Assembly (NCBI GenBank): GCA_947571515.1
Contig: CANOYI010000001.1
Location: 1-44,098, forward strand
Length of the DNA stretch: 44,098 bases
From: an uncultured Clostridium sp.
GTDB lineage: Bacteria > Bacillota > Clostridia > TANB77 > CAG-508
Direction: 5' to 3'
How positions within the stretch are numbered: position 1 is the stretch's first letter; the number at the start of each line of letters is the position of its first letter. Shown piece by piece: positions 39,700 to 41,129 of this stretch. The position numbers and the translations under genes are program-made. A model generated the notes under the pieces. The model did not search any database and had not been told where the DNA came from. It saw only the letters and a program-made list of their open reading frames with translations.

Positions 39700-41100
39700 T
39701 AGAAAAAATAAAAAATATTTCTGAGAATTTCAAAAAATGAAAAAACGAAATGAAACAAAAAAAATGAACAAAGTAAAATTTTTATGATAAAAAAGATAAA
39801 ATAAAATGTGAAAAAGTATTAGGCAATAAATAGAAAGAAAAGAAATTAAAAAAGCAAAAAAAGTCGAAAAATCGGTTTACATATATCATAAAAAGGAGAG
39901 AAAAAAAGATAGTAATAAATTTGTTTTTTGTGAATGAAAAAGTTAGTAAATGAAATTAAGTAGGAAATAAATAAGCAACAAATAGAAAATATAAATCTAT
40001 ACATAAAATATTAAAGAATTAAATTAGAAAAGGAAACAATAAAAAACGAAAATAAAAAAATACAAAGAGAAAAATTAGATAAAAAATAAAAATTGAAAAT
40101 GAAAATTAAAAGAAAATAAAAAAATAAAATTGATTTTAAAAATGATTAAATAAGAATTAAAAATAAAAATATCAGATAAAAAATTATTATTAAATATAAA
40201 AAAAGATTTAAAAAAAAATAAATCAAAAAAAACAATAAATTATAAAAAAATAATAATAAATAATAAAAATAAAAAATCAAATAAATATAAAAAACGAAAA
40301 AATTTTTGAAAAAGATAAAAATCATTTTTTAAAATTTGAAAAAAATGAAAAACGAAATGAAACAAAAAAATGAACAAAGTAAAATTTTTATGATAAAAAA
40401 GATAAAATAAAATGTGAAAAAGTATTAGGCAATAAATAGAAAGAAAAGAAATAAAAAAAACAAAAAAAGTCGAAAAATCGGTTTACATATACTTAAAAAA
40501 AGAAAGAAAAAAGTATAGAAATAATTTAATTTTTACTAATGAAAATATTAGTAAATAAAATTAAATAGGAAATAAATAAACAACAAATAGAAAATATAAA
40601 TCTAAACATAAAATATTAAAGTATTAAATTAGAAAAAAGAAACAATAAAAACGAAAATAAAAAAATACAGATAGAAAAATTAGATAAAAAGTAAAAATAA
40701 AAAATGAAATTTAAAAGAAGATAAAAAAATGAAGAACAAAAACGAAAGTGATTAAATAAAAAATTAAATGTAAAAAAATGAAATTAAAAATTATTATTAA
40801 AAATAAAAATATTTAAATAAAAAAATAAATTATAAAAAAGAATAAATAATAAAATAAGAATAATAAATAAAAATAAAAAGTTAAATAAATATAAAAAGAC
40901 AAAAAAAAATTTAAAAAATAGAAAATATTTTTGACGATTTTAAAAAATAAAATAACAAAATGAAAGGAAAAAATGAACAAAGTAAAATTTTTATGATAAA
41001 AAAGATAAAATAAAATGTGAAAAAGTATTAGGCAATAAATAGAAAGAAAAGAAATTAAAAAAGCAAAAAGTGTCGAAAAATCGGTTTACATATAGTGCAA
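39700..41100 (+). repeat. tandem repeat of ~605-bp units (2 full copies plus a partial third), ORF-free and A-rich
   Basis: A 121-nt core (ATGAACAAAGTAAAATTTTTATGATAAAAAAG...CGGTTTACATAT) recurs at 39764-39884, 40370-40490 and 40973-41093 (periods 606 and 603), nearly identical each time. Inter-core sequence of copies 1 and 2 is clearly homologous but diverged. Confidence 0.85.
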
Positions 41101-41129
41101 AATCAATAAAAAAGAAAGAAGGAGTAAAT

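Follow-up and report, generated by a model that had tools for sequence, protein, structure and literature searches.

Why does a gut bacterium keep, next to its replication genes, an A-rich tandem array that contains no open reading frame (ORF)? We analyzed a 44,098-nt stretch of DNA (the window) from the metagenome-assembled genome (MAG) of a low-GC gut Clostridia bacterium (G000; 2.1 Mb in 227 contigs, 88.5% complete). The array in question lies between a gene coding a TadZ/CpaE-like ATPase and a gene coding a 236-aa protein, p236. An earlier note on the same DNA had described the array as decayed copies of the p236 gene, whose upstream module was maintained as a functional non-coding element, perhaps a centromere for the ATPase. 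Comparison with related loci led us to another account: the array is a gene-tail duplication array, and it carries a bipartite DNA element, putatively bound by a protein, that appears to be selected specifically in one genus of uncultured gut Clostridia.

The array and its repeated cores

The array consists of three direct repeats with start-to-start distances of 606 and 603 bp (Table 1). It is composed of 64% A and 13.5% G+C, and each plus-strand frame contains 48-61 stop codons. No codon periodicity was found in the phase signals of G, C and T, and a hidden coding sequence was ruled out by this absence together with the stops. As the earlier note had said, the units have no ORF, their 121-nt cores are nearly identical, and the third core lies just upstream of p236. 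Compared in pairs, the cores match at 119, 119 and 117 of 121 positions; 117 positions are the same in all three, and the longest stretch that the three share without a mismatch is 83 nt. Outside the cores, units 1 and 2 are homologous but diverged, with 71-95% identity per 40-nt window and indels; the windows at unit positions 321-400, which hold a secondary conserved block (ATAAATCTATACATAAAATATT), reach 93-95%. This block is common to the units of sister species and to the copy at a second locus described below. Unit 3 does not align to units 1 and 2 past its core.

Given the flank divergence of about 16%, a 121-nt segment with no more than four mismatches would arise with a probability of about 1e-5.

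In the sister species L029, assembled independently, the gene is likewise followed by three units, at successive intervals of about 440, 628 and 644 bp, which argues against mis-assembly. In L029 the third unit continues for about 200 nt past the core to a real ribosome-binding site (RBS), a stretch that the third unit of the window has lost. The degraded RBS and start codons formerly seen in units 1 and 2 could not be confirmed and reflect A/G-rich low-complexity similarity.

Over the segment matching the 121-nt core, however, the L029 units are only 65-85% identical. The near-identity in the window is thus specific to this genome and is likely to reflect recent homogenisation, that is, gene conversion, on top of an older and narrower constraint. 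BLASTN of the core in relatives returned low-complexity matches only, and two exact-pattern scans of metagenome contigs for copies from the same species found nothing. The proposal of a maintained or homogenised module thus stands in part: something within the core is kept beyond neutral drift, namely two boxes and their spacing, but not the whole 121 nt.

Origin of the units

Eighty related loci were fetched via p236. In these loci the TadZ-like gene and p236 are separated by 3 nt to 4.8 kb, and the long gaps contain tandem arrays of up to seven units with a period of 480-860 bp. Copy number varies from 0 to 7 across species, and some species have no element at all.

For 33 of the related loci, the C-terminus of each species' TadZ was compared with its own gap by translated search, with the minus strand and the p236 N-terminus as comparisons. 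Scores reached 312 bits in L082, whose copy is identical to the gene tail, 220 bits in L069, 127 in L075, 99 in L056, 81 in L045 and 59 in L061, and were at noise level in the window's own clade. The minus-strand control did not exceed 28 bits, and the p236 N-terminus did not exceed 25 bits, with no match at E<1e-3. Judged by these scores, the units derive by duplication from the 3' tail of the upstream TadZ-like gene, have decayed to differing stages in different species, and are not copies of the downstream gene. Duplicated and decayed genic DNA had been correctly recognized by the earlier note; its source is the TadZ tail. An origin from p236 was rejected on the low scores of its N-terminus and the failure of unit 3 to align past the core.

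The array arose when a segment made up of the final few hundred bases of the TadZ-like gene and the adjoining spacer was duplicated in tandem, probably via unequal exchange between the A-rich insert coding for Lys and Asn and the A-rich spacer. In the window's species, the copies have since lost all coding signal. The insert itself, a K/N-rich low-complexity segment of about 100 aa (38940-39290; 14-19% GC), has A-rich DNA that resembles the spacer behind the gene and is a plausible substrate for duplicating unequal exchanges.

A bipartite element with two fixed spacings

Across species, only about 9 nt and about 18 nt of the units, and the distance between them, are conserved. Box 1 reads TTAGGCA(A/T)T and box 2 reads (A/G)GTTTACATAT, with a span of 63-65 or 74-75 nt when measured from the T of TAGG to the last A of ACATA. 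The consensus of 56 units from 20 species is TAGGCA(T/A)TAAAG ... AGTTTACATAT, and in the three closest species the only invariant parts are TATTAGGCA and AAAAATC(A/G)GTTTACATATA. In the gaps between tadZ and p236, TAGGY was found upstream of 71 of 74 GTTTACATA sites, where about 2.4% would be expected by chance.

The spacing falls into two classes, 74-75 nt in 42 sites and 63-65 nt in 24, with almost none between. It is held where box 2 is mutated to G(T/A)(T/A)AACATA, and it is constant despite many indels and a drift of unit length by tens of bases. The short (64-type) class occurs at no fewer than six separate places on the p236 tree that are forced apart by well-supported branches; for example, L094/L077 are nested among 75-type species, and L086 is sister to L096. 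A deletion of about one helical turn (about 11 nt) thus seems to have been tolerated repeatedly, and other lengths not. In species with 72-91% p236 identity, 64-type units keep both boxes and their spacing although the sequence between the boxes can no longer be aligned to that of their own gene. The repeated one-turn step, the fixed geometry, the lack of RNA structure and the survival of the element in non-coding copies distant from the gene point jointly to a site that is contacted by protein on duplex DNA.

The boxes might instead act in RNA, as sites for an RNA-binding protein or RNase within a long A-rich leader or intergenic transcript. They are in sense orientation within an operon that is probably co-transcribed and has no predicted terminators, and the strong skew of A over T is typical here of transcribed sense strands. 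However, stable or conserved secondary structure was not found: folding of the array was no better than that of shuffled controls (z-scores of -1.7 to +0.8), the core showed no inverted repeats, palindromes or hairpin potential, and an Rfam search at E<=1 returned no relevant match. The absence of a stable hairpin from the core had been noted before. Two spacings that differ by one helical turn and arose repeatedly are also more natural for duplex DNA, and we regard a role in RNA as improbable.

Several further features of the elements were noted. The DNA between the boxes is rich in A-tracts. Unit 1 contains a second, degenerate box pair at 39959-40005 (TAGGAAATAAATA ... CTATACATA, span 45 nt), suggesting that an older half-copy is nested in each 606-bp unit. 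In L037 (L037:1-5467), the region of more than 5.4 kb that precedes p236 lacks any ORF of at least 50 aa on the gene strand and carries about six GTTTACATAT boxes with a period of about 500 bp, several of them without box 1; one box is directly followed by a canonical TTGACT-N15-TGTATAAT promoter.

The element inside the live gene

The TadZ-like gene itself contains a copy of the element, which was found by a regular-expression scan of the window with TAGGCA(A/T) and GTTTACATA. All 24 genuine gene-embedded copies span 75 nt. The Gly of LGI in box 1 is coded by GGC in 26 of the 29 loci examined, and GGC makes up 7% of the Gly codons in the window's genes. The residue before LHI in box 2 is coded by AGT wherever it is Ser, and in a few loci it is Gly (GGT) or Cys (TGT), leaving the third base T invariant. 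In TadZ of other families, the first place reads YKDFSN, YIGMKK or FISIRQ, without LGI, and the second reads KFEFIL, KIYLVI or KIFLII, without SLHI. Because synonymous sites are fixed and the residues are unrelated in the TadZ of other families, the conservation within the gene is a constraint at the nucleotide level that is specific to the array-carrying genus.

Skipping the C in ATCGGTTT of the array core would bring LHI back in frame, but a TAG five codons past box 1 and other stops exclude translation. A diversity-generating retroelement was rejected as well, since the copies in gene and array are of unequal span (75 against 64 nt), their differences show no preference for adenines and no reverse transcriptase was found. 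Neisseria pilS and Borrelia vls are arrays of silent partial-gene cassettes that serve gene conversion. They resemble the present array in having promoterless 3' gene fragments beside an expressed gene, with short conserved blocks flanking variable stretches. Here, in contrast, there are many stops, the step from 75 to 64 nt breaks the frame, and the parent is a cytoplasmic ATPase with no reason to vary.

Copies at other loci

Elsewhere in the same genome, the whole unit recurs at the ends of contigs C120 and C12, with 84% identity over the core and about 77% over 466 nt. These copies are upstream of and co-oriented with a methyltransferase gene, and a second, more degenerate copy lies 103 nt before its ATG. 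C120 and C12 are probably neighbors, with the assembly broken inside this second array. The three closest sister species have 64-type arrays at the same place, with the proximal copy 76-103 nt from the ATG, and their contigs too end within the array; in one of these species the proximal copy has decayed while the upstream copies persist. In L045, L064 and L088, units are also found upstream of virB4C. All copies are oriented like their downstream gene.

Throughout the 2.1-Mb genome, the sequence GTTTACATATA was found 7 times and nowhere but within these elements, and this restriction ruled out the core as a genome-wide regulon motif. A loose pattern search of 81 genomes of the genus was dominated by background.

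A spread of this kind could be produced by site-specific recombination, with the boxes serving as sites for a recombinase or a non-autonomous mobile unit and with arrays growing by accretion. Elements that integrate into gene ends typically leave arrays of 3' gene fragments. Copy number differs between close species, units have spread to virB4C and to the second locus, and the array is a frequent point of contig breakage: about two dozen MAGs (L029-L108) have a contig that stops 60-300 nt upstream of the p236 homologue. Contigs ending at the same place indicate that the arrays break short-read assemblies and that copy number is systematically under-estimated. On the other side, none of the species examined has a recombinase at or close to the locus, inverted repeats and hairpins are absent from the core, and the units are homologous over their full length, as in tandem duplication and not as in independent insertions. 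Recombination sites are therefore a doubtful explanation of the array.

The attC repeats in the cassette arrays of the Vibrio cholerae chromosomal integron are about 120 nt long, and the cores of the present array are likewise conserved over about 120 nt, recur every 0.5-1 kb in the same direction and are separated by diverging DNA. An integron was rejected because the locus has no integrase, no hairpin potential and no ORFs, and because the units are homologous to each other. Box 2 read in reverse resembles the XerD arm of Bacillus subtilis dif. A dif/Xer array was rejected: no 28-mer was found within 6 mismatches of B. subtilis dif, and the arm-like 11-mer occurs 94 times genome-wide, which is at chance level. 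A CRISPR-like reading was dismissed on anatomy. During the scan for dif arms another motif was seen, TTGCAA(T/A)(T/A)TTATGTAAAAT with the variant TTGACATTTTATGTAAAAT, which has more than 10 occurrences genome-wide (e.g., C3:34354, C57:7325, C74:2772, C49:2246 and C2:33765) and may be of promoter or operator type.

Constraint or neutral decay

The array shares much with ordinary tandem segmental duplications that leave pseudogene remnants. Its units are head-to-tail, co-oriented and homologous to the 3' end of the adjacent gene, and among the species all stages are seen from an identical copy to unrecognizable A-rich DNA. Ordinary remnants decay uniformly, however, whereas here a motif and its exact spacing survive in almost all units, genus-wide and at a second locus.

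It is still conceivable that the array has no function, and that recurrent gene-tail duplication, birth and death of copies and patchy conversion leave the boxes behind as the most constrained part of the parent gene. Fresh duplications do exist (L082 identical, L069 nearly so), the long core identity in the window is lineage-specific and best explained by conversion, and the decay of the proximal second-locus copy in one sister species would also fit. Four observations are hard to reconcile with this explanation. The 64-type units keep the boxes and spacing without inter-box similarity to their own gene, even at the distant second locus. The boxes, at about 9-18 nt, are too short for RecA-mediated conversion from the gene. 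The residues of the parent are not conserved in the wider family, and its synonymous sites are fixed. Finally, with 20-35% divergence of the flanks, intact boxes in all units of arrays of six or seven would be very improbable under neutrality. We consider an array without function quite unlikely; neutral decay, recombination sites and an RNA element are the less likely explanations.

A candidate promoter or activator module

Of the functions that had been proposed for a non-coding cis-element, a promoter/operator or protein-binding site is now the most reasonable, and the centromere has lost its support. Our favored explanation, which we hold tentatively and at a little less than an even chance, is that the gene-tail duplication array retains the bipartite element as a portable, stackable promoter or activator module. 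The element would be an orientation-fixed upstream module of transcription control, in which a protein would contact both boxes together on one face of double-stranded DNA; box 2 would be a core promoter element and box 1 a factor-binding site held in helical register. No terminators were predicted in 35100-42500, so several copies would add up: without terminators between units, stacked copies would all read into the downstream genes. The genes served would be p236-p95 here, virB4C in some species and, at the second locus, the methyltransferase-rsmI operon. Within the clade of the window, the proximal element precedes p236 by 37-200 nt and the methyltransferase gene by 76-103 nt.

The sequence of box 2 gives this explanation a more specific form. 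For C. difficile promoters that depend on the mother-cell factors sigma K and sigma E, Saujet et al. (PMC3789822) give CATATAAT and CATATTAT as the canonical -10 sequences and AC or ATA as the -35. CATAT(A/T)(A/G)T in box 2 matches this sigma E/K -10 box, and the pattern CATA(T/C)A-T is present at box 2, which reads CATATATC, CATATACT and CATATAGT in the window. The commonest 8-mer of box 2 is CATATAAT, found in 22 of 68 units and 10 of 25 gene copies. A five- to six-fold enrichment of AC is seen 12-15 nt upstream of CATA (34 of 72 units), and C is enriched 15-16 nt upstream of the box-2 CATA. The organism's own spoIVA has CATATTCT upstream. The genome encodes SpoIVA, SpoIIID, SpoIID, a SpoIIIAA-like protein and several sporulation-type sigma factors; the SpoIIID homologue is at C77:6973-7206 and has two paralogues. 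We take a mother-cell sigma E/K promoter at box 2 as a lead suggested by sequence, not as proof. As in promoters of this type with activator sites in C. difficile and B. subtilis (PMC3789822, PMC517825), box 2 carries CATATAAT or CATATTAT with AC enriched upstream, box 1 is placed in helical phase like an activator site, and the organism is a spore-former. The fit is unclear in the AC-to-CATA distance of 12-15 nt and in the variable last bases, and the element differs from such promoters in being repeated up to 7 times, in being embedded in coding sequence and in having downstream genes that are not known sporulation genes.

Several results weigh against a promoter module. In the window's clade, the final T and last bases of the CATA box vary, and no single -35/-10 pair fitting all clades was found; a pair TTTACA-N16-TATTAT is present in many 75-type units and absent in the window's clade. 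A generic sigma-70 promoter scan of the array was at chance level, with 60 found and 62 expected, in line with the earlier note, which had seen no canonical promoter pair in the core. Between the last element and the start of p236 lie 37 to 1373 nt (median about 270 nt). Housekeeping genes, as found at the second locus, are a poor fit to a promoter used only in sporulation, and up to 7 intact copies are hard to explain if only transcription into p236 mattered. Species without tadZ and without the element still keep p236.

Two sporulation regulators were tried as partners of the boxes and rejected. The C. difficile consensus of SpoIIID is KRTAACARK; GTTTACAT in box 2 matches 5 of its 9 positions, and box 1 does not match. 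GerE, whose box is RWTTRGGY, was considered for box 1, but no GerE ortholog was found above the Pfam cut-off in the genome. The sigK-like (C29:12231-12865) and spoIIIAA-like (C76:3443-4218) matches both fall into three frames or pieces and contain in-frame TAA or TGA codons, which could be due to frameshifts, pseudogenes or assembly errors.

Genomic setting

The window covers the chromosomal origin region, where strand bias and GC skew flip at about 28.8 kb. The order is dnaA (29130), dnaN, recF and gyrB (33271-35199), and gyrA starts at 42478. The interval between gyrB and gyrA contains five genes or gene parts plus the array (Table 1).

Table 1. Positions of the array, its elements and the surrounding genes (window coordinates, except for the second array, which is given by contig).
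Feature	Position	Strand	Remarks
A-rich tandem array without ORF	39661-41129	+	Unit 1 39661-40266; unit 2 40267-40870; truncated unit 3 40871-41129
Core 1, 121 nt	39764-39884	+	Bipartite element 39820-39883, span 64
Core 2, 121 nt	40370-40490	+	Bipartite element 40426-40489, span 64
Core 3, 121 nt	40973-41093	+	Bipartite element 41029-41092, span 64; end 37 nt before p236 ATG
Secondary conserved block ATAAATCTATACATAAAATATT, unit 1	39991-40013	+	Counterpart in unit 2 at 40596-40617
Gene-embedded copy of the element	39380-39454	+	TAGGCAT ... GTTTACATA, span 75; encodes ...VLGINEI...NSLHIV...
VirB4-like conjugation-type ATPase, two parts	35685-36398 and 36421-38205		NCBIfam CD1110 family
TadZ/CpaE-like ATPase gene, 474 aa	38236-39660	+	Pfam AAA_31/CbiA; receiver-like N-domain and ParA/MinD-type P-loop
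p236, 236-aa all-helical protein	41130-41840	+	First gene 3' of the array; kept in the genus, distantly in the order
p95, 95-aa two-helix protein	42046-42333	+	Last gene before gyrA
Second array	C120:4-242 and C12:27335-27935	-	At both contig ends; between a GerM-like gene and the gene of a 246-aa methyltransferase, then rsmI

This gene order is common throughout the genus and is found more distantly in other families of the order; the locus is therefore not a recent island. In the other families (L109-L113), the order is virB4N-virB4C-tadZ-tadA(T2SSE)-tadB(T2SSF)-p236. Because tadA-like T2SSE and tadB-like T2SSF genes come next in these sister families, the ATPase is, on gene order, of the TadZ/CpaE type and not a partition ParA. 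The window's genus has lost tadA and tadB at this locus, and the array occupies their place. Structures of p236 (pLDDT 65) and p95 (pLDDT 83) were predicted, and fold comparison yielded no informative match and no DNA-binding fold.

Centromere-like and architectural roles

The earlier note had seen the ATPase as a ParA-like partition partner of the array. Plasmid centromeres are indeed similar in some respects. P1 parS has box A and box B around a bend, and F sopC consists of 43-bp repeats; the array too has two phased boxes, is tandem, and adjoins a gene of a ParA-superfamily ATPase. It differs in its period, which is 603-606 bp here and 480-860 bp in relatives instead of tens of bp, and in having a second array elsewhere. 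A ParABS centromere was rejected because the ATPase is of the TadZ type, no ParB-like family was found among the neighbors and there are no close iterons or palindromes. The TadZ type of the ATPase and the lack of a ParB-like partner deprive the centromere idea of its main support.

A wider version of this idea is a serious rival to the promoter module: the bipartite sites, about 10 kb from oriC, would load a DNA-binding protein that organizes or anchors the origin, for example in sporulation, or would titrate a regulator, and any transcription would be incidental. Every unit of long arrays keeps both boxes and their spacing, which suggests collective action, and collective protein binding would be the best account of intact arrays of 6-7 units. 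The helical phasing resembles that of bipartite centromeres, the locus lies beside dnaA-dnaN-recF-gyrB, and the A-tract-rich DNA between the boxes would suit such a site. There is also a precedent: B. subtilis SpoIIID binds many sites, some of them probably in coding sequences, without transcriptional effect (PMC517825). Against an architectural array stand the TadZ type of the ATPase, the lack of a DNA-binding fold in p236 and p95, a period far above that of known iterons, a copy number that goes from 7 down to 0 with the element absent in some species, the second array at an unrelated locus, and the match of box 2 to only 5/9 positions of the C. difficile SpoIIID consensus. Taken together, we consider an architectural array unlikely. 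We judge as rather unlikely a form of it in which a segment of TadZ coding sequence would have been exapted into a bipartite protein-binding element and arrayed as up to 7 sites in register, forming an origin-proximal platform for loading, anchoring or titration of a possibly sporulation-specific protein, and not ordinary promoters.

Implications

If the bipartite element is what it appears to be, a cis-element was born inside coding sequence, where it fixed synonymous sites and two amino-acid motifs in its host gene, and was then multiplied by gene-tail tandem duplication and seeded elsewhere, across a genus known only from metagenomes. As a promoter or activator module, the element would provide a handle on transcription control, possibly specific to the mother cell, in organisms without genetics, and would explain the VirB4-like/TadZ-like/p236/p95 operon that lost tadA and tadB. 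Should the array instead be a binding platform, it would represent a new kind of chromosomal organizing array in uncultured gut Clostridia.

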